DNA from: a virus
Taxonomy: Duplodnaviria > Heunggongvirae > Uroviricota > Caudoviricetes
Strand: one strand, 5' to 3'
Length of the DNA: 64,000 nucleotides
IMG/VR virus record: IMGVR_UViG_3300036876_000145
Location: 19,489 to 83,488 of that record
Below, piece by piece: positions 13,226 through 50,742 of this stretch; the first letter of the stretch is position 1, and each line of letters begins with the position of its first letter. The translations under genes and the position numbers were made by a program. The notes under the pieces were generated by a model, which saw only the letters and a list, made by a program, of their open reading frames with translations, ran no database searches and was not told the origin of the DNA.

Positions 13226-15322
13226 ATGGGTCTTCAAGAATACACCACAGCGCTAAACGCGAAACTAGAAAAAGCACGGGACGCTTATTACAAGAAGGGC
13301 GAACCCGTGATGTCCGATGCTGAATATGACGCTCAGGAAAAAGAGTTGGCGGATATAATATCGGCTAATCCTCAATTGAAGGTGTTCGCCCCTGTACTCC
13401 ATACAGTGGGTTCCGATGTAACGGCCTCTGGAAGAGTGAAGCACAGCCGTCCCATGCTCAGCATTGAGAACAAATACACTGTTGATGACTTTGTGGAATG
13501 GGCTAAGAAAATATGGGCAGGATATCCCGACGCCAAATTCTGCTTAGAGCCAAAATTTGATGGTGTGAGCGTAGAATTAAGGTATAGGCATGGAAAATTG
13601 CATCAAGCCGTTTCCCGCGGTACGGGCAGTGAAGGAGAAGATTGCACTTTACAGGTAATGGCGATCAAATCCATTCCAAAAACAGTACCTAATAGTTTTC
13701 CAAATGTGTTTGACATTCGGGGAGAAATGGTCATGCGGAATGACACCCTTGAACGTCTCAACGCTGAGGCCCAAAAATATGGGGGTAAAATTTATCAGTC
13801 CACCCGTAATCTAACAGCGGGTACCATGAAAAAGCAAGACGCTAAAATTGTAGCTAGTCGTGACCTTGAATATAGACCTTGGGAAGTGACAGGTTCAGAT
13901 TTAAATGATAGTGGGTTTGCCCGCTTGGATATGCTTGTTGATGCGGGGTTTGTCGCTCCCTTGGGAGAACTGGTAGAAGATGAAGCTTCACTACGAGCTG
14001 TTTTAGCGAAGAAACTTAAGGAGCGCACAACTAAACTTCGTGATATTCTTTCCTTGGAAACTGATGGCGTAGTCATTAAAGTAGATTCGAATGCTTTACG
14101 CACACAGTTAGGAGTTGCTTCTAAATATACCAACTGGCAAACCTGCTTCAAACCCCAATCTGCCTCTGGTACTACGTATCTACGCAGCATCGAATGGCAG
14201 GTAGGACGAACAGGAAAATTGTCTCCTGTTGCGGAATGTGACCCCGTGATACTGGCTTCCGCGAAGGTCGAACACGCCAGTCTTAACAACATCTCCTGGA
14301 TTAAAGAAAAAGGTTTGAAACTGGGGGCAAAGGTAGAAATGCTGCGATCCGGGGATGTGATCCCTCAAATCGTTCGTGTGATTGACGAAGGGGATGATGA
14401 AATCATTCCACCAACAAAATGTCCGGAATGCGCTGGAAAAGTTGTGGAGATGGATGAGGGCGGAGTAGGCATCATTCAACATTTTTGTACCAATCAAGCA
14501 TGCCCCGGTATTCTACGGGGGTATTTGGCTTTTATTGGTAGTAGGGATGTACTAGAAATCGATGGGTTGGGTCCAGAAGCAGCAAGAACACTAGTGAAAG
14601 AGGAAGGGATCCATGATCTGGCTGGGCTTTTTAATTTTTATAATAGATGCCAAGATAAAAGACTCTCCATGGATACAAATAAAGAATTTATCGCCTATGC
14701 TCGAATGATAGGATTTGATGCCACTCTTCCCAAAATGTTGGATTCCTTAGAGAAGGCTAAAACCGCTCCTTGGGAGCGTTGGATCAAAGCTTTGGGGATT
14801 CCTATGATTGGGGAAACTCATGGTAAAGCTTTGGTGACATTTTTTAAGCTCACCCCAGAGAGCTTCAAAGATTTATGGCAAATTACCCAAAACTTGGAAG
14901 AGAACAAAATTGAGGGTATAGGGCCGCAGAAAATAAAAGCTTTATCTGAATGGGGGGCGAACCCTGACAACAAAGTTTTGTGTTTGTCATTATTCAATTT
15001 AGGTGTGCGTCCTACTCCTCCGGAAACGCCTAAAATAGTAGCTGGGGCACCTCTAAGTGGTATTATTTTCTGCATTACAGGGGAGTTTGACGAAGATAGA
15101 AACTCTCTTATCAAGAAACTTGTTAGCTTAGGGGCCGAATCTAAAACTGGTGTAACCAAAAAAATAAATCTTTTGATCGTTGGTGATGACGCGGGAAAAA
15201 CTAAGTTGACTAAAGCCGCAGAATTAGGTATAAAACAAGTAGGGAAAGATTGGCTCGTTAAAACTTTGTCCGATAGCGGCATTAAAATGTCGCAAAATAA
15301 CTTTGTTCCAGAGCAGGCGTAA
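13226..15322 (+). CDS. ligA: NAD-dependent DNA ligase
   Basis: Ia domain YYKKGEPVMSDAEYD, adenylation KxDG (EPKFDGVSVEL), OB domain, Cys4 zinc finger CPECAGKV...CTNQACPG, HhH region, C-terminal BRCT. Confidence 0.9.
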   Translation: MGLQEYTTALNAKLEKARDAYYKKGEPVMSDAEYDAQEKELADIISANPQLKVFAPVLHTVGSDVTASGRVKHSRPMLSIENKYTVDDFVEWAKKIWAGYPDAKFCLEPKFDGVSVELRYRHGKLHQAVSRGTGSEGEDCTLQVMAIKSIPKTVPNSFPNVFDIRGEMVMRNDTLERLNAEAQKYGGKIYQSTRNLTAGTMKKQDAKIVASRDLEYRPWEVTGSDLNDSGFARLDMLVDAGFVAPLGELVEDEASLRAVLAKKLKERTTKLRDILSLETDGVVIKVDSNALRTQLGVASKYTNWQTCFKPQSASGTTYLRSIEWQVGRTGKLSPVAECDPVILASAKVEHASLNNISWIKEKGLKLGAKVEMLRSGDVIPQIVRVIDEGDDEIIPPTKCPECAGKVVEMDEGGVGIIQHFCTNQACPGILRGYLAFIGSRDVLEIDGLGPEAARTLVKEEGIHDLAGLFNFYNRCQDKRLSMDTNKEFIAYARMIGFDATLPKMLDSLEKAKTAPWERWIKALGIPMIGETHGKALVTFFKLTPESFKDLWQITQNLEENKIEGIGPQKIKALSEWGANPDNKVLCLSLFNLGVRPTPPETPKIVAGAPLSGIIFCITGEFDEDRNSLIKKLVSLGAESKTGVTKKINLLIVGDDAGKTKLTKAAELGIKQVGKDWLVKTLSDSGIKMSQNNFVPEQA

Positions 15323-17955: not shown

Positions 17956-19857
17956 ATGGCTGGACATGTTACCCCACAAGCGAAGGTTCTTTTGGTTATT
18001 GTTGGAGTTGTAGGACTCTGTTTCTTAGGTAAGACAGCGATGGAACGGGGCTGGATGCCAACTCCCAACATCATGAAGGCGATTGTCCCATCCCACATTT
18101 CACTTCCAGAAGTGAAAGATGCACAGGTTGCGAATGTTGTACCGGCACCCCTACCACAAAGCACACCGGCAACCGTTTCTAATACGCCTATCATCGGAGA
18201 AGTTTGGGAATGGAATGCTATGTTAGGTCATCTATTGGCAAACGGCGGTAAACATACAACCGCTGGTTCCCTGATGGCAAAGCGTAATGTTAATCTGACA
18301 CTTAAGAGGCAAGATCTCACCGATCAAATGCAATTGGATTTGATCGCTTGTGCCAGCCAGCTAGCGGGGGGGTCTACGGATTGTTCCACCGGAGCGAACT
18401 ATGTTATTATCATGGGCGACGGTGCGGGGCAATTTGCAGCTGCTACCAATCCAAAGCTTTATGACTTGGACTGCAAGGGAAAGCCAAAGGGCTGCGTTTC
18501 GAAGTATACGCTCAAGGTTATCGCCGCAACTGGATATAGCCGCGGAGAAGATGCCTTTTTGGCCCCTCCGAATGTAAAGAAAGATTCCAAGTCTTTCAAT
18601 CAATCCCCTATGCCTGGGTCGCAAGATTCCAAGGGTCAGGAAATTACTGGCCTATTGGTTGAAGGCGTTCTTCGTGATGGTGATTGGAACATCGCCTTAA
18701 AGTGGGCTGGTGATAACGCCATCCCCAATAACCCGGACGAAAAGACTTTCGATCCAGATGCAGTTAACTGGATCAATGCTCCGGATTACAACACCGCCGC
18801 TACAGATTATGTCGCCGGTAAGTGCGAAGATCGTAAACTCGTGCATGCGGGGCGTCCTACAGGGGATATGGTGCATGTCTGTGTAAACTCCCTTGTGACT
18901 TGGACACCCGGAGATGTTGTAGCCGTGACGAAGAAGGGCGGCGTAGTGAAGGTTGTTTCTTCCAAACAAAATCGCAGTCAGATGCCCGCTGTGATTATTG
19001 GTCCGGCAAAGTTTTTCCAAGACAATCGGGAAGAAATCACTAACATGCTCGCTGCTACTTTCGAAGGTGGCGACCAAGTGAAGGCGTTTGACTTGGCTCT
19101 GCACAAGGCGGCAGCTATTTCATCCGATGTTTATGACGATAAGGGTGATGCTCCAAACGAAAACGGAGACTACTGGTACCGTTATTACAAGGGTGTTCCG
19201 TACAAGGATCCCACCACGGGGCAGATAGTCGAACTAGGCGGTTCGTCTGTGAACAACTTGGATGATAACCTTATCTTGTTTGGTATGAAGGATAAGGGGA
19301 ATGACAACTTCCGCTCAACTTATACGCTCTTTGCGAACATTGATGTACAGCAATACCCAACTTTGTTCAAAGAGACTCCAATTCCTGATGTGAAGCTTGT
19401 GGAAGATAAGTCTTTCATCCAGGGAGCGAAGGATATACTCAGCGGGGATAACAACACCGGCTCCGAAGCAGCGGAACCAGCGTATGAACAGCAAGCTACG
19501 GGAAGTGTCATTGGTCAGCGTGCCTATGATATCAACTTCAAGACGAATGAAGCGAAACTTACCGAGGCTGGTGAGGCACAGTTGAAGCAATTGAAGGATG
19601 GCTGGGCAATCACCGGAGCGTTTATTCAGGTCGATGGCTATACAGACAGCACAGGCAATGAAGATCACAACCTTGAACTATCAAAGGGACGTGCGGCCGC
19701 TGTGGTTACATACCTGCACACAAACTGGCCGACAAACTTCCCGGCAAAGCGTTTCAAAGCCACGGGTCACGGTTCTCAAGACCCCGTAGCTTCTAACGCT
19801 ACAGCCGAAGGGAAGGCTCAAAATCGTAGGGTTACGATTACCCTGCTAGGCAAGTAA
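17956..19857 (+). CDS. OmpA-family protein (N-terminal TM anchor, C-terminal OmpA/MotB peptidoglycan-binding domain)
   Basis: Start set at MAGHV, which has an aggag Shine-Dalgarno. C-terminus ...GYTDSTGNEDHNLELSKGRAAAVVTYL is an OmpA C-like domain. Confidence 0.75.
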   Translation: MAGHVTPQAKVLLVIVGVVGLCFLGKTAMERGWMPTPNIMKAIVPSHISLPEVKDAQVANVVPAPLPQSTPATVSNTPIIGEVWEWNAMLGHLLANGGKHTTAGSLMAKRNVNLTLKRQDLTDQMQLDLIACASQLAGGSTDCSTGANYVIIMGDGAGQFAAATNPKLYDLDCKGKPKGCVSKYTLKVIAATGYSRGEDAFLAPPNVKKDSKSFNQSPMPGSQDSKGQEITGLLVEGVLRDGDWNIALKWAGDNAIPNNPDEKTFDPDAVNWINAPDYNTAATDYVAGKCEDRKLVHAGRPTGDMVHVCVNSLVTWTPGDVVAVTKKGGVVKVVSSKQNRSQMPAVIIGPAKFFQDNREEITNMLAATFEGGDQVKAFDLALHKAAAISSDVYDDKGDAPNENGDYWYRYYKGVPYKDPTTGQIVELGGSSVNNLDDNLILFGMKDKGNDNFRSTYTLFANIDVQQYPTLFKETPIPDVKLVEDKSFIQGAKDILSGDNNTGSEAAEPAYEQQATGSVIGQRAYDINFKTNEAKLTEAGEAQLKQLKDGWAITGAFIQVDGYTDSTGNEDHNLELSKGRAAAVVTYLHTNWPTNFPAKRFKATGHGSQDPVASNATAEGKAQNRRVTITLLGK

Positions 19858-25162: not shown

Positions 25163-25309
25163 TCTTGACAAATTTTCCAACTATCAGTATTATATAAAGA
25201 GTAGTTGGTTCGGAACGAGCCATCAGGCGTTAACGTAGAAGTATTAAATTCAAGCGTAGCCTGAGAATCTTTATGTGGGGGAGAACCCGCATTTAAAAAA
25301 GAAGTTCAA
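25163..25309 (+). repeat. ~145-bp direct repeat copy 1 (promoter plus conserved leader)
   Basis: Near-identical to 35663-35808. Confidence 0.8.
25166..25194 (+). promoter_or_regulatory. sigma70-type promoter (TTGACA-17-TATTAT) heading tRNA cluster 1; part of the 145-bp repeat
   Basis: cTTGACAaattttccaactatcagTATTATat, near-consensus. Confidence 0.55.
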
Positions 25310-25362
25310 CTAGTAGCTCCAACGGGGTGTGTTTGCGTAAAGCAATTAAAGAAACACTGATA

Positions 25363-25388
25363 GCCGCCGATTAAGGCGGCTTTTTTAT
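25363..25388 (+). terminator. rho-independent terminator
   Basis: gccgccgattaaggcggc followed by tttttt. Confidence 0.6.
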
Positions 25389-25392
25389 TTTA

Positions 25393-25481
25393 AGGAAGTG
25401 TGGGTGAATGGTTAAACCAGCGGTTTGCTAAGCCGCCGAAGCCTGAAAGGGCTATCCGAGTTCGAGCCTCGGCACTTCCGC
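25393..25481 (+). tRNA. tRNA-Ser (GCT), type II
   Basis: Acceptor ggaagtg/cacttcc, anticodon loop ttGCTaa, long variable arm, T-arm tccgagttcgagcctcgga, CCA encoded. Confidence 0.8.
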
Positions 25482-25515
25482 CATAACATCAAAACAAACT
25501 TTCTGTGTTCTTAGC

Positions 25516-25965
25516 ATGGACACTAAAATAGTTTGTAGGGAAAAACGGCATCGTTGGGCTAAAAGGCGTAGGCAAGATCCTAAATTTTTACCTAGCATTA
25601 TTTGGCGAGATTCTCGTAGCTCAGATAAAAAATTGCTTCGGGAAAATGATCTTGACAAAGACTTTATTAAGGATAAAATTAGCAATGGATGTTTTTACTG
25701 CGGAGAGACAAAAATAAGGATGACCTTGGATAGAATAGATAATAGCTTAGGTCATTTAAAGACGAATGTCAATCCAGCATGTATGCGATGCAACTATCTA
25801 CGCAGGGACATGCCATACGATGCCTGGTTGTTTTTAGTTGAAGGTATTCGTAAAGCCACAGAGCAGGGAGCTTTTAACGGATGGCTAGGCGGTAACACTA
25901 GTAAATATGCTGGTGGGGAAGATTTAATGGACTTCATCGAAGTCGGTGAAGGTCCAGAAGAGTAA
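25516..25965 (+). CDS. HNH endonuclease
   Basis: CFYCG...LDRIDNSLGHLKTNVNPACMRCN HNH motif; inside the tRNA cluster. Confidence 0.7.
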   Translation: MDTKIVCREKRHRWAKRRRQDPKFLPSIIWRDSRSSDKKLLRENDLDKDFIKDKISNGCFYCGETKIRMTLDRIDNSLGHLKTNVNPACMRCNYLRRDMPYDAWLFLVEGIRKATEQGAFNGWLGGNTSKYAGGEDLMDFIEVGEGPEE

Positions 25966-26370: not shown

Positions 26371-26691
26371 ATGAAGAGAAAAAATAAACCACTGTTGTCC
26401 ATTGAGAACGCACGAGAATTTAACGCCAAAATAGAGTGGGAAGGAAGTTTGGATTATGTTTTGCAGAACTGGGATTTTAAAGAATTCAAAGATAAAAAAT
26501 TCAATAGTTTGCGAAAAGCGTACATTAAGGCCCACCAGGATATGATGGATTATTGCTATCTGGATAGAGTTCTAGAAGATACCACCGAACCATCAGATCT
26601 CGATGAATCTGACCGCTGCCCTTCTTGTGGAGATGCGCTGGAATTAAACGGTACATGTTATACATGTACGGGTGAGCAAAATGAGAATTAA
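26371..26691 (+). CDS. hypothetical protein with C-terminal zinc ribbon
   Basis: 106 aa; CPSCGD...CYTC. Confidence 0.45.
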   Translation: MKRKNKPLLSIENAREFNAKIEWEGSLDYVLQNWDFKEFKDKKFNSLRKAYIKAHQDMMDYCYLDRVLEDTTEPSDLDESDRCPSCGDALELNGTCYTCTGEQNEN

Positions 26692-26947
26692 GCTCATCGT
26701 TAGAAAAAATTTGCACATGAGTGAAAATAAGCAATCCGCTCAATGTGTACATGCAGCTCTAGGGCTTTACAAAAAAAATCCGCAGGATCATTGGTCATGC
26801 GTGGTGCTGGATGCTAGCGATAAAAAATTCGAGGAAGCAAAAGAAGCGCATCCAGAGGGATATGTAGTGACCGATGCGGGCTACACGGAAATTCCAGCGG
26901 GCAGTGAAACTGTTTTGGCTTTCTATGAGGATGACCCCAGAGAATAA
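26681..26947 (+). CDS. peptidyl-tRNA hydrolase, PTH2 family
   Basis: MRIKLIVRKNLHMSENKQSAQCVHAALG resembles the PTH2 N-terminal signature (KMVLVVRTDL...GKIAAQCSHA). Sits inside the tRNA cluster. Confidence 0.65.
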   Translation: MRIKLIVRKNLHMSENKQSAQCVHAALGLYKKNPQDHWSCVVLDASDKKFEEAKEAHPEGYVVTDAGYTEIPAGSETVLAFYEDDPRE

Positions 26948-37860: not shown

Positions 37861-37952
37861 ACTTTGAGCGAGTTACGTGGAAGGCAACTTTGTTCATGGA
37901 GGGCAACGACCAAAGCGACTCGCTCAATAAGTTTTGAAGTTTGAAGTCATGA

Positions 37953-38030
37953 TACACGTAGCTCAATTGGTAGAGCAGCGCCATTAACGGCGCTGATGTG
38001 GGTTCGATCCCCACCGTGAGGAAGGCTTCT
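37953..38030 (+). tRNA. tRNA-like gene with a non-canonical anticodon loop (attaac) and a poorly paired acceptor end
   Basis: D-arm tagctcaattggtagagc, anticodon hairpin gcgcc-attaac-ggcgc, T-arm gtgggttcgatccccac. Only about 4 acceptor base pairs. Confidence 0.3.
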
Positions 38031-39421: not shown

Positions 39422-39967
39422 ATGGCAGACACTTTAATTCTTGACCAAAACTGGCAACCACAGTCTTTTTGTAACTGGCAGAACGCTGTGAAATTGATAT
39501 ATGAAGGGCGTGCTCAAGTTATCAAAGAAGACGAGGGTGGGCGCATTTTACGGTCTCCTTCTCTGGAATGGAAGATGCCAAGGGTTATTGTTGTCAAAAA
39601 CGCTTGGGTTCGTAGGAAGCGTTTGTCCGTTCCTTTCTCCAGACGCAACATCGCGGTTAGGGATAATAGCGGGTGTCAGTACTGCGGTAGGGTATTGAAG
39701 ACTCAGGAATATACTCTTGACCACGTAATGCCTCGTTCTCAAGGTGGTGTATCTTCATGGACCAATTTGGTGCTCGCCTGTGTGCGCTGCAACAAGCGTA
39801 AGGCCGGTCAGACACCTAAGGAAGCTGGCATGCACTTACTTAAGCAGCCCGTGGAGCCGAAGAAGGACGATCCGAAGTACAACTTCAAGCTTCACATTAA
39901 CAAGCTACGGCCAGAATGGAAAGAGTGGGAAACCTGGCTATATTGGAATGTGGAACTAGAAGCGTAG
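39422..39967 (+). CDS. HNH endonuclease
   Basis: CQYCG...LDHVMPRSQGG...NLVLACVRCNKRK canonical HNHc motif; followed by the hairpin tgacacg...cgtgtca. Confidence 0.75.
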   Translation: MADTLILDQNWQPQSFCNWQNAVKLIYEGRAQVIKEDEGGRILRSPSLEWKMPRVIVVKNAWVRRKRLSVPFSRRNIAVRDNSGCQYCGRVLKTQEYTLDHVMPRSQGGVSSWTNLVLACVRCNKRKAGQTPKEAGMHLLKQPVEPKKDDPKYNFKLHINKLRPEWKEWETWLYWNVELEA

Positions 39968-40065: not shown

Positions 40066-40142
40066 ATCCTCGTACCGGCCTCGTTTCCTAAACGAGTAAC
40101 CGTAAAGGAGCAATGTGGGTTCGAGTCCCACCGAGGATACCA
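40066..40142 (+). tRNA. tRNA-Arg (CCT)-like with a reduced D-arm and enlarged variable region
   Basis: Perfect acceptor atcctcg/cgaggat plus A and CCA; T-arm gtgggttcgagtcccac; anticodon hairpin ctcgt-ttCCTaa-acgag. Only 7 nt between acceptor and anticodon stem. 18-nt variable region. Confidence 0.45.
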
Positions 40143-40295
40143 GGTTTTTATGTACATCAAATGCAGCATATTCGATGTGGATTTGGATCATGTATTTGAT
40201 GAGTTTCTTTTTCAGTTGACAGATATAACACTTCCTGATACACTGGAACTTGATGATCAAAAGATAGATAATCAAGAAGATTATAAACTACGAGA

Positions 40296-40341
40296 GTATT
40301 TATTGAAGGCTACAAAATAAGCATTGAAGGTCTTGCGAAAA
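40296..40341 (+). repeat. 46-bp direct repeat copy 1
   Basis: gaaggctacaaaataagcattgaaggtcttgcgaaaaccaagctgg, identical to 63955-64000 at the window end. Confidence 0.7.
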
Positions 40342-40612
40342 CCAAGCTGGCTAAATCAATGCTGGATGTTGCATTCGGGAAATAAGAATTAAGAATTCTC
40401 GACGCCTTGGGATACATGGAGTCGTTAAACGACTGCGGACAGTGTGTAAGTCTGGCGAAAGCCAGCAGCGCTGGTTGAAACAGTTAAGGGCGGCGTTAGC
40501 CGCCTAGAATCTCCCGCCTTTAGGCGTGGGAGTATCAATATGATGGTAATTCTTAACAACACGCTCACCACGCTTCACCTCAGACCTAAACGCTAAATTT
40601 CCGCGTTCAAAA
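40342..40612 (+). ncRNA. non-coding structured region with multiple GNRA-capped hairpins
   Basis: No ORF. Hairpins agtcgtt-aa-acgact, ctggc-GAAA-gccag, gggcggc-gtta-gccgcc, ctcccgcc...ggcgtgggag. Lies between the 46-bp repeat and tRNA-Arg(TCT). Confidence 0.3.
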
Positions 40613-41461: not shown

Positions 41462-42778
41462 ATGATGAAAAAAGAAATGACCCTTTTGGGTCTAGTCGCC
41501 GCTACGTATTTTATGGTAAGCGGAGGCCCGTACGGTCTAGAAGACCTAATTGCTCAAACTGGTTACGGATGGGGAATACTCATTCTTTGCTTAGTGCCCT
41601 TCCTGTGGGCACTGCCAACCGCTATGATGGTTGGTGAACTCGCCTCTGCGATACCGAATCGCGGGGGTTTTTATATTTGGGTGCAACGTGCCCTTGGAAA
41701 ATTTTGGGGATTCCAGGAAGCTTGGCTTTCATTAGCGGCTTCCATATTTGATATGGGAATCTACCCGCTACTTTTTATTTCTTACCTGGGTGTATTGGCT
41801 CCAAGTTTCACCGCAGGGTGGCACGGCTCGCTTATAGCAACGGCTCTAATCGCTGTTTGCGTATTGTGGAACCTTCGGGGTGCCAAAGCTGTAGGAAACG
41901 GCTCTGTGGCGTTAGGAGCCCTTATGGTGAGCCCTTTTGTGATTATCACCCTAGCAGCTCTCCGACACGCCCATCTGACCCATGTTACGGGTCATCCTCA
42001 CGCCGTCAGTCTTATGGGCGGTATTATGGTCGCTATGTGGAACTTCATGGGTTGGGATAACGCCAGCACCATAGCCACAGAAGTCAAAAAACCTCAACGA
42101 ACCTACCCCATCGCCATGATGGTGACTATGCTGTTGATTGTTGGAAGCTATATTCTCCCCGTAGCAGCGTCTTGGTATCTGGGAGTACCCCTGTCTGCCT
42201 GGTCAACAGGGAGTTGGGCGACTATTGGTGAAATCATCGCGGGTTCTTGGGTACGAGACGCCATTGTACTGGGTGGAATGATCAGTGCAGCGGGGATGTT
42301 GAACTCCCTCATGATGAGCTATTCTCGTATTCCCCCAGCGCTGGCTGAAGATCATTATCTGCCTCGCATATTCACAAAAATAAATGCAGTGTCAGTTCCC
42401 ATGATAGCTTTATTTGCCTTGGCGACAGTTTGGGCAACAGCGTTCGGTTTGAATTTTGACCGTCTGGTGATGCTGGATATTTTACTTTATGGAACGAGTC
42501 TTATTCTGGAGTTTATCGCTTTAGTGGTATTGCGTTGGAAAGAACCAGATTTGCCTCGACCTTTTCGTGTGCCTGGGGGAAAATTGGGCGCTATCTTGGT
42601 AGGAGTTTGCCCAACGATACTTCTCTTCGCGGCCGGTATTTTTGGGGATCATAACGGACTATTGCTAGGCTTAGGCATGATTCTATCCGGGGTGGGTGCT
42701 TGGTGTGGAATTCATGGATTTCGTGCCGCTAAATATGAAAAAATCGCTCCCACTTTCTCAACTACCACGATCCCCTAA
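41462..42778 (+). CDS. APC-superfamily amino acid/polyamine permease
   Basis: 12-TM pattern; N-terminal GGPYGLEDLI...GELASAIPNRGGFYIWVQRALG typical of amino acid permeases. Confidence 0.85.
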   Translation: MMKKEMTLLGLVAATYFMVSGGPYGLEDLIAQTGYGWGILILCLVPFLWALPTAMMVGELASAIPNRGGFYIWVQRALGKFWGFQEAWLSLAASIFDMGIYPLLFISYLGVLAPSFTAGWHGSLIATALIAVCVLWNLRGAKAVGNGSVALGALMVSPFVIITLAALRHAHLTHVTGHPHAVSLMGGIMVAMWNFMGWDNASTIATEVKKPQRTYPIAMMVTMLLIVGSYILPVAASWYLGVPLSAWSTGSWATIGEIIAGSWVRDAIVLGGMISAAGMLNSLMMSYSRIPPALAEDHYLPRIFTKINAVSVPMIALFALATVWATAFGLNFDRLVMLDILLYGTSLILEFIALVVLRWKEPDLPRPFRVPGGKLGAILVGVCPTILLFAAGIFGDHNGLLLGLGMILSGVGAWCGIHGFRAAKYEKIAPTFSTTTIP

Positions 42779-44037: not shown

Positions 44038-44543
44038 ACTATCAAAATAAACTTCAAAAAATACAAAAAGAGTTTGTGCTGGGAATAAAAGATAAATTCA
44101 CCTGTATGACTAAATTTGAGCAAGTTTTATGGGAATACGGTCTTCTACCAAAACAAGAAGAGTTAGATAGGGAAATGTCTAATGAACATTTTTCTCGCTT
44201 GATACAAATGGCTATGGAACATACAGATACTCATTCAGATCGAGATCCTGAAAATAGTGAAGAATTGGATAATGAATACGCAGCGGCTTTTTATTCTGTA
44301 AGAGTTTGCCCAATTTGTCATATTACGCAATCCCGTCCATTAGTTGGTAGCGTGAGTGATTTAGCTCGAAAAATAACTGCATTAAACCCTCCTCGTTGTG
44401 AACGCTGCGCCATTGATTGGATGAAAAAACATCTAGAGAATTCCCCAAAAGGTGAAAATGTAGATTTGATAAAACCACTTAGCAAAGAAGAGAAAAAATT
44501 TTTTGATGAGTATGAGAAGGAAATGGAAGACTTTGAGGTTTAG
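44034..44543 (+). CDS. hypothetical zinc-binding protein
   Basis: 169 aa; CPICH...CERCA. Confidence 0.45.
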   Translation: MNYQNKLQKIQKEFVLGIKDKFTCMTKFEQVLWEYGLLPKQEELDREMSNEHFSRLIQMAMEHTDTHSDRDPENSEELDNEYAAAFYSVRVCPICHITQSRPLVGSVSDLARKITALNPPRCERCAIDWMKKHLENSPKGENVDLIKPLSKEEKKFFDEYEKEMEDFEV

Positions 44544-45232
44544 TGGTATTATTATGGTATATGAATATGAACGGCTCGACGAGCGCAATCCCGCCGCTTT
44601 GCGGTGGGTTAGCGAGTGCCTTGGTTCTCGACGTCGCAGTTATGGCGGACCCACAGAATGGTACCGTTCAACATCTCGGATTCAACCCAGCGGCAACCAA
44701 GTACAACTGGAGACGCAGGAGAGCCAACCTCAAGAGTGCAGGCAAGCGTCGTACACTGCGCCAACTGAGCCGTAAGCAATCACGACGTACAACACATGAG
44801 AATCACATCGTGTCTAAGCAAATAGTTTCCTATGCCGTAAAGCATCACCGCGCAATTGCCGTAGAAAACCTTGAGACAGTTCGTAAGCCGAACAGCAAGA
44901 TTCGGAAGTACGTCGAGAAGTCTCAATGGTCTTTCTATCAGTTGTTGTCGTTCCTCAAGTACAAAGCGGCTTTGCACGGCGTTATCATCGCGGAAGTCAA
45001 TCCTGCATACACCTCGCAGAATTGCTCTCGCTGTGGACAGCGGAACACTCCAAACGGCAAGAAGTACGTTTGCGAGCATTGCGGACACACCGACCATAGA
45101 GATGCTAACGCGGCATTCAACATCGCCAAGCGCGGTATTGAGTTCCTATCTATGGGCGGCACTCACGACTCAGAGCGCGTGAGCGGGGCTGTATTGGTGA
45201 CGCCCTATTCTGGAGGACCAGCATATGCTTAG
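44543..45232 (+). pseudogene. IS200/IS605-family TnpB (OrfB) remnant: C-terminal RuvC-II/III plus zinc finger only
   Basis: IAVENLE (RuvC-II), CSRCGQ...CEHCGHTDHRDANAAFNIAKRG (zinc finger plus RuvC-III). The N-terminal ~170 aa and the RuvC-I GIDLG Asp are absent (HLGFNP). GC-rich. Confidence 0.55.
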
Positions 45233-45305
45233 CATAATGTCACGGTTCGAAAGAATCCCAGAGTTCTACTCTGGGAGCATCAAATCGAATTTTAAGGAGA
45301 TAATT

Positions 45306-49802: not shown

Positions 49803-49835
49803 AGTGTTTCCGATGTATACTAGGGATGGAGGCGA
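49803..49835 (+). promoter_or_regulatory. TGTATACTAGGG-type promoter-like element (copy A of a 40-bp duplicated block)
   Basis: atccattttcagtgtttccgatgtatactaggga is identical to 51907-51939. Extended -10-like TGTATACT sits about 10 nt before the ATG. Confidence 0.4.
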
Positions 49836-49836
49836 T

Positions 49837-50742
49837 ATGACAAAGAAAAGTAGCTCTGATGTGGCGGCTGATTTGAAAAGTGCAATGGGTTCCGCTGCCG
49901 ATGCAAAGACTATTCTCGATACACCAGATAAGAAAACCGCCAGCCGTTCCACATGGAAGGGTTATATTTCCGCTTTTGGCGTTATGCTGATTCCCGCCGC
50001 AACCCTGAAAGCCACTGATGTTGATGCTATCGAAACCCACATGTACCATAGCGCTGCTTGTCCGAATCGTTTGGTGCAGAAATACACCTGCTCTTGCTGC
50101 GACACCGAAGTCCCCAACGCTCGTACAAACGCCCTTAAGGGTGTAGAAGTGGGGGACAAAGTCATTACTCTCACTCAAGCGGAATTAGACGCTCAGAAGC
50201 CCACTAGTGACAAAATTCTCAAAGTCACCGAGTTTGTTCCCGCTGATGCGATTGATGTTACCTACTACGAATCCAGCGAATACATCGCCGCTGATAAGGG
50301 TGGGGAAAAAGCCTTCGCCACATTCCAGCAAGCCTTGGCGCAAACGGGGCGTATCGCTATCGGCACCTTCGTAAGCCGCGGTCACCAATACACTGTTGCA
50401 CTTCGCCCCAAGGGTCAGTATGGTATCGTCATGTCTTATTTGTTCGCGGAATATGAAGTTCGCAACTGCGGCAAGTGGACGCCTGTTGTTGTCAATCCGG
50501 CAGAAGTTGATTTGGTCAAGCAGCTTATGACTGAAACCGAACTGGCAAAAGAAGTATTCACCCCCGCCGCCTATGACCCCTATCTCTCTGGCGTGCGCAA
50601 GATGATTGCTGCTAAGGCAAATGGTACGGAAGTTTGCACCCCGGCTGCGGACGAAGTTCCCAAGGCTACGGATGATTTGTTGGCGGCGTTGAAAGCTACC
50701 CTGGAGCAGCAAAAGGCAAAGGCTGCAAAGGCTGGTGTATAA
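49837..50742 (+). CDS. ku: Ku protein (non-homologous end-joining DNA end-binding)
   Basis: WKGYISAFGVMLIPAATL, YYESSEYIAADKGGEKAFATFQQALAQTGRIAIGTFVSRGHQYTVALRP, YLFAEYEVR match bacterial Ku (WSGAISFGLVNVPVKLY, YYLAPDKGGEKAYALLREAL...AIARFV...LAALRP, YADEVR). A Cys-rich insert HMYHSAACPNRLVQKYTCSCCD. Confidence 0.85.
   Translation: MTKKSSSDVAADLKSAMGSAADAKTILDTPDKKTASRSTWKGYISAFGVMLIPAATLKATDVDAIETHMYHSAACPNRLVQKYTCSCCDTEVPNARTNALKGVEVGDKVITLTQAELDAQKPTSDKILKVTEFVPADAIDVTYYESSEYIAADKGGEKAFATFQQALAQTGRIAIGTFVSRGHQYTVALRPKGQYGIVMSYLFAEYEVRNCGKWTPVVVNPAEVDLVKQLMTETELAKEVFTPAAYDPYLSGVRKMIAAKANGTEVCTPAADEVPKATDDLLAALKATLEQQKAKAAKAGV

Follow-up and report, generated by a model that had tools for sequence, protein, structure and literature searches.

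The omega RNAs of TnpB nucleases, the gene-less elements termed PATEs and the domesticated guide RNAs of TldR proteins are all known already. The omega RNA of ISDra2 requires only its 3' 116 nucleotides (nt) as a functional scaffold, and a pseudoknot pairs positions -5 to -3 with positions -105 to -103 (PMC10097598). PATEs are gene-less derivatives of IS200/IS605 elements that encode omega RNAs used in trans, retain both left-end and right-end hairpins, and can be mobilized by TnpA (Meers et al. preprint, PMC10055086). TldR proteins are nuclease-dead TnpB-like repressors, whose guide RNAs (gRNAs) adjoin tldR and match host promoters (PMC10705468). Here, we analyze two copies of a promoter-bearing repeat, each upstream of a tRNA cluster, in a 64,000-nt stretch of virus DNA (IMG/VR record IMGVR_UViG_3300036876_000145, positions 19,489 to 83,488; hereafter the window), which is taken to be part of a large phage. 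We conclude that both repeats are almost certainly cassettes derived from the right end, with its omega RNA, of a TnpB transposon of the IS200/IS605 family.

These cassettes are like TnpB omega RNAs (reRNAs) in that a homologous 3' scaffold stops at the transposon right end (...TCAA), with the flanking DNA as the guide. As in the ISDra2 omega RNA, a pseudoknot joins bases just 5' of the guide to a site ~100 nt upstream, and the scaffold is of similar length (~110 nt, compared to 116 functional nt in ISDra2) (PMC10097598). They differ from TnpB omega RNAs in that they neither overlap nor adjoin tnpB and have their own consensus promoter at the 5' edge of the scaffold, and from their TnpB-linked relatives in that the tail motif is GTTCAA instead of TGTCAA and no left end was found. 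Like a PATE, a cassette is protein-less, retains the omega RNA and would obtain TnpB in trans; unlike PATEs, the cassettes have no left-end hairpin within 700 nt upstream, whereas complete relatives have one. If functional, a cassette would resemble the TldR gRNAs as a domesticated, (pro)phage-borne TnpB-type guide RNA with a role other than transposon maintenance, but no TnpB-like open reading frame (ORF) adjoins the cassettes and their guides have no match in the window or in related loci. There is also a likeness, functional only, to the PeSL cassettes of T4-type phages, in which an early-type promoter and a stem-loop are repeated in plastic regions of large genomes with varied cargo; PeSLs are not transposon guide RNAs. 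A search of the literature found no described omega-RNA scaffold that is fused to a promoter, lacks a left end and tnpB, is conserved among phages and leads into tRNA or tmRNA genes.

Two near-identical repeats join a consensus promoter to a structured RNA

A first-pass annotation of the window described two nearly identical repeats, each with a consensus sigma70 promoter, a conserved stretch that encodes no conserved peptide, and an intrinsic terminator before the first tRNA. The near-identity was borne out by alignment, in which copy A (25163-25309) and copy B (35674-35819) are ~97% identical over ~145 base pairs (bp); the coordinates reported for copy A stand, but those for copy B (35663-35808) were off by ~11 nt. 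A core 29-mer occurs exactly twice in the window, compared to none expected (100 shuffles). The promoter, TTGACA-17-TATTAT, was likewise found as described in both copies, with 11 of 12 consensus positions matched, and its sequence is the same in copy A, copy B and a third copy in a related phage (in L001; labels of this form denote other loci). Sequence common to these three copies extends at most ~8 nt upstream of the -35 element.

Downstream, the terminators and spacers of copies A and B are unrelated in sequence, and the gap from the end of the repeat to the terminator is 52 nt in copy A and 157 nt in copy B. Both terminators do lie directly before the first tRNA, tRNA-Ser(GCT) and tRNA-Trp, with T-runs that end 1-3 nt upstream (copy A's ends 2 nt upstream of tRNA-Ser(GCT), 25394-25483), although the interval assigned earlier to copy B (35988-36010) takes in only the 3' half of its terminator. 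The absence of a conserved peptide was also upheld. Downstream of the sole ATG, copies A and B differ by an indel of 1 nt and then by one of 2 nt, and the L001 copy has a stop codon; a leader peptide is thus ruled out, since its frame is broken. Both indels lie in the third hairpin of the structure described below.

The conserved structure matches TnpB omega RNAs up to the transposon right end

The source of the structure was found with a degenerate scan in which only the two arms of hairpin 2 were fixed. This gave a match in L017, overlapping the 3' end of a gene for a 384-amino acid (aa) protein with the Pfam domains OrfB_IS605, Cas12f1-like_TNB and HTH_OrfB_IS605, that is, TnpB. Ten further TnpB loci, with proteins 54-91% identical to the L017 TnpB, have the same order of elements and end in ...TGTCAA, and one TnpB relative has a Y1 TnpA gene upstream. 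In the TnpB-linked order, hairpin 1 (5-nt loop) and a single unpaired base precede a three-tier hairpin 2 (UCAGGC...GCCUGA), after which come GAAUC, a hairpin 3 that varies in sequence, and a 7-nt tail that ends in ...TGTCAA. The flanks after ...TGTCAA are wholly different, even between elements with 91% identical proteins; this motif marks the transposon right end, and the next bases are the omega-RNA guide.

The leader in the window has the same order of elements and terminates in ...AAGTTCAA. Identity between copies A and B stops exactly at 25309 and 35819, right after ...GTTCAA, and the L001 copy likewise ends in ...GGTTCAA, at L001 position 1962. Thus, in three contexts the border of the repeat is the transposon end, and the TnpB-linked relatives diverge at the same model position.

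Homology was assessed with R1, a covariance model built from 11 TnpB-linked sequences, none of them from the window, for which RNAalifold gave 24 pairs, 13 with compensatory changes. R1 matched copy A over its full model length (25204-25309, 57.3 bits, E = 2.8e-11), copy B at 35715-35797 (51 bits, E = 7.4e-10), where the local alignment halts inside hairpin 3 and a manual alignment reaches 35819, and the related-phage copy at L001 1873-1962 (56.9 bits). The model is specific: among 100 TnpB loci it gave 21 matches, all 21 at the tnpB 3' end and in the orientation of the gene. We also ran the folding and covariation check that the first-pass annotation had proposed. Folding of the conserved RNA is better than that of shuffled controls (z = -3.7; -4.8 for the whole transcript of copy B), and in an alignment of 23 sequences, the window copies among them, pairing holds in 95.9% of cells and double changes are seen in 15 of the 24 pairs. 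None of 500 shuffles attained those values, and slid controls reached at most 51% paired.

Further evidence comes from the pseudoknot, to which the hairpin-1 loop contributes four bases that pair with positions -6 to -3 of the tail (95.5% of cells paired, compared to 4-61% in slid controls), and three of the four pairs show double changes. The pairing is GAAC/GUUC in the window and L001 copies, and GGCA/UGUC, GACA/UGUC or GGCA/UGCC in the relatives. The window and L001 copies thereby have compensated pairs of their own, A-U and C-G, where the relatives have C-G and A-U, such that the deviant tail of the leader is compensated by its deviant hairpin-1 loop.

The predicted start of transcription of copy A, at ~25200, is ~8 nt upstream of hairpin 1. 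The transcript would therefore begin at the edge of a minimal TnpB guide-RNA scaffold, and the scaffold that the promoter would give is complete and minimal, at ~110 nt (~100 nt in the related phage). The conserved structure is fully explained by TnpB omega-RNA homology. A T-arm or tRNA-like reading of GGTTCGGAACGAGCC was ruled out; that segment is omega-RNA hairpin 1. A search of Rfam 15 (gathering thresholds and E <= 10) with both copies and a TnpB-linked relative found no family for this omega-RNA subfamily.

A third copy leads into a tmRNA in a related phage

Distribution was surveyed with exact patterns over IMG/VR and the JGI metagenomes. The same promoter and leader were found in five contigs of a single related phage, one from IMG/VR and four from metagenomes (L001, L002, L006, L009 and L010); the other matches were one read-end fragment and chance matches in G+C-rich coding sequence. 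Relative to the window copies, to which it is 93-94% identical (blastn), the L001 copy has 5 extra nt inserted close to its 5' end, a single substitution and a hairpin 3 that is both different and shorter. This hairpin is kept despite an ~20-nt indel, and its base has changed from U-A to C-G between copies A and B and the L001 copy. The 62-nt cores of the two phages differ by one substitution, whereas beyond the cassette, 12-14 kb of the related phage have nothing in common with the window (blastn, tblastx).

In the related phage, a permuted tmRNA (RF04321, 74 bits) begins 4 nt beyond the cassette, with no terminator between the two; a terminator follows the tmRNA, and then a CyVA-1 RNA (L001 1967-2346; also in L006 and L009). 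Because this third copy precedes a tmRNA and the rest is unshared, we consider the cassette to be a portable module placed before varied cargo, not a sensor tied to a terminator. The tmRNA is of the two-piece type, with the tag ...APKAFAAAA, and L006 also has a tRNA with a CUA (amber-reading) anticodon (2359-2433). On the minus strand of L006 (1036-700), a promoter module 88% identical to that of the cassette (blastn) precedes a different noncoding stretch, ~290 nt long and closed by a terminator, which begins with GGCTACAAAATAAGC, a motif also present in the window remnant at 40292-40538 (see below). In addition, a 163-kb viral contig has a weak match to the omega-RNA model (L016 4783-4868, E = 0.047), with no TnpB-sized ORF among those listed nearby, and a further orphan element of the omega-RNA-like kind may thus exist in another large phage.

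The window itself had no match among INPHARED phages (BLAST), but many metagenome assemblies from peat and bog contain its sequence. The comparison between samples drew on three other contigs of this phage, whose sequence is the same as that of the window. One 153-kb assembly contig breaks at ~35860, just past copy B, and a 178-kb contig also carries genes of the window. Since one contig runs ~117 kb past the start of the window, the phage genome is at least 180 kb.

How the cassettes might act, and the readings weighed

If the cassettes are expressed, a transcript from the sigma-70-type promoter would fold into hairpin 1, hairpin 2, GAAUC, hairpin 3 and the 7-nt tail, with the loop-tail pseudoknot. 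Transcription would then cross the transposon end (...GUUCAA) into the unique flank, of which the first 16-20 nt would occupy the guide position (CTAGTAGCTCCAACGGGGTG in copy A), and would end at, or partly pass, the intrinsic terminator that abuts the first tRNA, with predicted RNA lengths of ~190 nt for copy A and ~300 nt for copy B. A cognate TnpB from another insertion sequence, of the phage or of the host, might load such an RNA in trans and would then cleave DNA that has the same flank but no cassette, such as the genome of a competing phage; the targets of this guide reading would be cut in a TAM-dependent manner at CTAGTAGCTCCAACGG or GGAATACGAGAATGAC. Read-through would bring transcription into the tRNA cluster; the tmRNA must likewise be transcribed from the third copy. 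Because the terminators abut the tRNAs, these tRNAs could be expressed only by read-through from the cassette promoter or from upstream.

The first-pass annotation had offered two interpretations of the repeats. The suggestion of a small RNA gene present in two copies was essentially right, given a promoter and a highly structured, conserved RNA, for which transcription is predicted. The other suggestion was a leader or attenuator that controls read-through into the tRNA operons, for example by sensing uncharged tRNA or a phage factor; we also considered a metabolite as the signal that would switch the terminator. In both copies a structured, promoter-proximal RNA is indeed followed by a terminator immediately before a tRNA, but we found no conserved antiterminator pairing: leader and terminator pair no better than chance, such that shuffled leaders pair at least as well in 70% (copy A) and 55% (copy B) of cases. 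Moreover, the terminators and spacers differ in both sequence and length, and in the related phage nothing terminates transcription between the cassette and the tmRNA. Among Rfam families of leaders, T-boxes and riboswitches, none was matched at E <= 10 apart from weak, terminator-driven matches, and the fold is inherited from an omega RNA. Such a sensor is therefore very improbable, and we conclude that the cassettes are transposon-derived RNA rather than a tRNA-sensing leader. An equally slim chance attaches to a cis-acting processive antiterminator of the HK022 put RNA or rrn nut-like kind, whose nascent hairpins would modify RNA polymerase to pass the terminator and the tRNA genes. Adjacent hairpins do follow a promoter and precede unrelated terminators, in two copies per genome, an arrangement that resembles HK022 putL and putR, and TCTTTA with a G-rich stretch is faintly boxA/boxC-like. 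However, the boxA-like match is only 6 nt, no sequence or model test was in favor, and we dropped this idea because omega-RNA homology explained the hairpins.

The choice that matters is between an RNA that is still a guide and one that is a reused fossil. We favor, tentatively and from sequence features, the reading that the cassettes still work as guide RNAs for TnpB in trans. All helices and the pseudoknot are intact, and the predicted start lies right at the 5' border of a scaffold that is minimal yet complete; one compensatory change at the base of hairpin 3 and the retention of that hairpin postdate formation of the cassette; and the core is almost unchanged between two phages that are otherwise unrelated in the loci compared. 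Nevertheless, because the copies are few and near-identical, the case for selection after loss of tnpB is carried by one compensatory pair and low divergence. The fossil reading, which is quite plausible if by no means assured, holds that debris of an insertion sequence acts only as a portable outward promoter and stable 5' leader with no TnpB user, and that the fold persists as the copies are young. It is consistent with the position of the cassette as the only promoter before the related phage's permuted tmRNA, with the lack of space for promoters of their own at tRNA-Ser and tRNA-Trp, and with the occurrence of the same promoter module before an unrelated RNA in L006. Against it, besides the intact scaffold, the later compensatory change and the conserved cores, a terminator between promoter and tRNAs is odd for a pure promoter donor. 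Several observations nonetheless weigh against a working guide and must be set beside this evidence. Only three nearly identical copies were found across all collections searched. No L017-type TnpB was found by tblastn in the 64-kb window and ~30 kb of related-phage loci; the sole match to the L017 TnpB in the window is a distant one (44732-45172), and the only TnpB-like ORF there is truncated, belongs to another family and has an omega RNA that R1 does not match. The three sites share a left border, as well as a right border exactly at TCAA, yet have no left end. The guide positions are mere neighboring DNA (in one copy a spacer, in another the ribosome-binding site of a small ORF, in the third the beginning of a tmRNA), and no second-site guide target was found in the window, the related loci or IMG/VR. 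Tail positions that are invariant TG in the TnpB-linked relatives are GT here, although the pseudoknot compensates for this, and further decaying remnants of insertion sequences lie nearby. In a fuller scenario, which we judge unlikely, several gene-less omega-RNA genes with their own promoters would be maintained by a large phage of peat bogs as trans guides for TnpB encoded elsewhere, in the phage or the host. Such separate guide genes would stand halfway from transposon-encoded omega RNA to free-standing guide-RNA loci, and could serve to cut rival genomes that have the same tRNA or tmRNA island flank but no cassette (homing or exclusion), while their transcripts also feed the tRNA and tmRNA genes.

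Searches for a cognate TnpB, a left end and targets

Upstream of both scaffolds there is a promoter in place of a tnpB ORF, so that the scaffolds do not overlap the 3' end of tnpB. A close-relative scan of IMG/VR for a cognate TnpB found none on the related phage's contig. No hairpin resembling hairpin 3 was found within 700 nt upstream of copy A or copy B, where the best candidates had 7-9 mismatches in 20; in complete relatives, left-end hairpins resemble the element's own right-end hairpin with 3-4 mismatches. A scan for guide targets in the window and related loci (16 nt, <= 4 mismatches) returned the native sites and low-quality matches with 2-4 mismatches, which we judged to be chance. 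Empty sites, sought in IMG/VR by means of the flanks, were not found, and in a phage with a SprT protein 79% identical to that of the window phage, the contig ends before the copy A site.

In the flank of copy B, a possible 40-aa ORF (35831-35953; MTFRKSNTNVASKQGERQRKHNNRWFGAAGLFLVDSTDVV), read from the sequence, lies between the repeat and its terminator, and its Shine-Dalgarno sequence, AAGGA, spans the transposon-end boundary, a point that favors the fossil reading.

Complete L017-family elements have a consensus TTGACA promoter just inside the left-end hairpin, in a context (AAATAAG..TTGACAA) that resembles that of copy A. This also favors the fossil reading, and it is a hint that the insertion sequence itself may be the source of the cassette promoter, by an internal deletion that joined promoter and scaffold.

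Implications

If the cassettes are active, TnpB guide RNAs can be independent, strongly promoted genes, uncoupled from both the nuclease gene and transposition. They would then represent a missing intermediate between transposon omega RNA and dedicated guide-RNA loci, and possibly a weapon in phage competition, and would offer this TnpB group's scaffold in a compact natural form (~100-110 nt). If instead they are fossils, large phages would have turned IS605-type right ends, which are obliged to transcribe outward for their guides, into portable promoters and leaders of tRNA and tmRNA genes. Either way, a repeat beside a phage tRNA island that looks like a promoter plus a conserved leader should first be compared with omega-RNA models, and only then be labeled a riboswitch or small RNA.

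Features of the cassettes and of other TnpB remnants

Table 1. Positions of cassette elements and TnpB remnants in the window
Feature	Position	Strand	Description
Copy A promoter	25165-25193	+	-35 TTGACA 25165-25170, 17-nt spacer, -10 TATTAT 25188-25193; 11/12 consensus
Copy A omega-RNA-like scaffold	25200-25309	+	R1 match, covariation; ends at transposon right end
Copy A hairpins	hairpin 1 25207-25221; three-tier hairpin 2 25223-25264; GAAUC 25265-25269; hairpin 3 25268-25302; tail 25303-25309		tail AGUUCAA
Copy A pseudoknot	25213-25216 x 25304-25307		GAAC x GUUC
Copy A unique DNA after transposon end	25310-25361	+	identity of copies A and B ends at 25309/35819
Copy A intrinsic terminator	25362-25391	+	7-bp G+C-rich stem 25362-25381, then T-run
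Copy B promoter	35676-35704	+	TTGACA-17-TATTAT; predicted start ~35711
Copy B omega-RNA-like scaffold	35711-35819	+	hairpins and pseudoknot as in copy A; terminal ...GAAGTTCAA at 35819
Copy B unique DNA after transposon end	35820-35976	+	guide position = GGAATACGAGAATGACCTTT
Copy B intrinsic terminator	35977-36007	+	9-bp stem 35977-35998, then T-run; abuts tRNA-Trp 36008-36083
TnpB-derived remnant	40292-40538	+	short tnpB coding relic, then omega-RNA-like 3' end ...GAATC-TCCCGCCTTTAGGCGTGGGA-GTATCAA; moderate evidence
5'-truncated tnpB and right end	44543-45283	+	229 aa, RuvC and zinc-finger half; TnpB family other than that of L017

Two more decaying TnpB remnants in the window (Table 1), like the lack of a cognate TnpB, fit the fossil reading. 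The one 85 nt upstream of tRNA-Arg(tct) was matched by R1 at 40458-40538 (18.8 bits, E = 0.017), and its coding relic has a weak blastx match to TnpB residues 264-292 (E ~0.08). Its first 46 nt recur identically at the end of the window (63955-64000), and sigma-70-like promoters precede both the remnant (40216-40244) and this repeat (~63911-63939).

The truncated tnpB ORF (44543-45232) encodes a protein 93% identical to full-length TnpBs of 363-373 aa, and its DNA is 88% identical to L192; the right end, ...GGGAGCATCAA at 45283, is 23 nt before a Met-aminopeptidase gene. In L218, from the phage with the 79% identical SprT, a full-length TnpB of this same family lies at 1040-2206, between the SprT gene and the next ORF. 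This full-length copy of the element, at another site and next to the SprT gene of a related phage, represents an insertion polymorphism, and TnpB elements are therefore active or polymorphic in the lineage. All TnpB remnants here keep the right end, and three of the four in the window lie directly upstream of tRNA genes, as the related-phage copy lies upstream of a tmRNA.

Other genes and repeats in the window

All genes in the window are on the plus strand, with 21 tRNAs. Among the products, a Ku-domain protein (49804-50742) and an NAD-dependent DNA ligase (13226-15322) together suggest a capacity for end-joining repair in the phage; an SNF2 helicase and an amino-acid permease are also encoded. 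A major-vault-protein-like ORF (30675-33155, 817 aa) has Major Vault Protein shoulder and Vault_3 repeat domains, which are unusual for a phage, and lies directly behind a third consensus TTGACA-17-TATTAT promoter.

The tRNA islands (loci including 26672-26947, 33432-34265 and 41462-42778) also hold genes for a PTH2 peptidyl-tRNA hydrolase, an RlaP-family nucleotidyltransferase and the amino-acid permease, as well as an HNH endonuclease (39422-39967) that matches Pfam HNH families; together, these PTH2, nucleotidyltransferase, permease and HNH genes thus make a dense translation-related accessory set. An additional ORF in a tRNA island (25516-25965) is HNH by sequence motif only, with no Pfam match. 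ARAGORN gave one tRNA with an abnormal 2-nt anticodon (37952-38022), and Rfam detected a tRNA (40066-40139) that ARAGORN missed. A 72-nt direct repeat, 71% identical between its copies (36391-36462 and 36569-36640), lies between tRNA-His and the tRNA-Arg cluster. Finally, a repeat family centered on GTGTTTCCGATGTATACTA (24078, 49788, 51478 and 51898) occurs just upstream of ORFs and is a candidate phage-specific promoter motif, distinct from the sigma-70 type.

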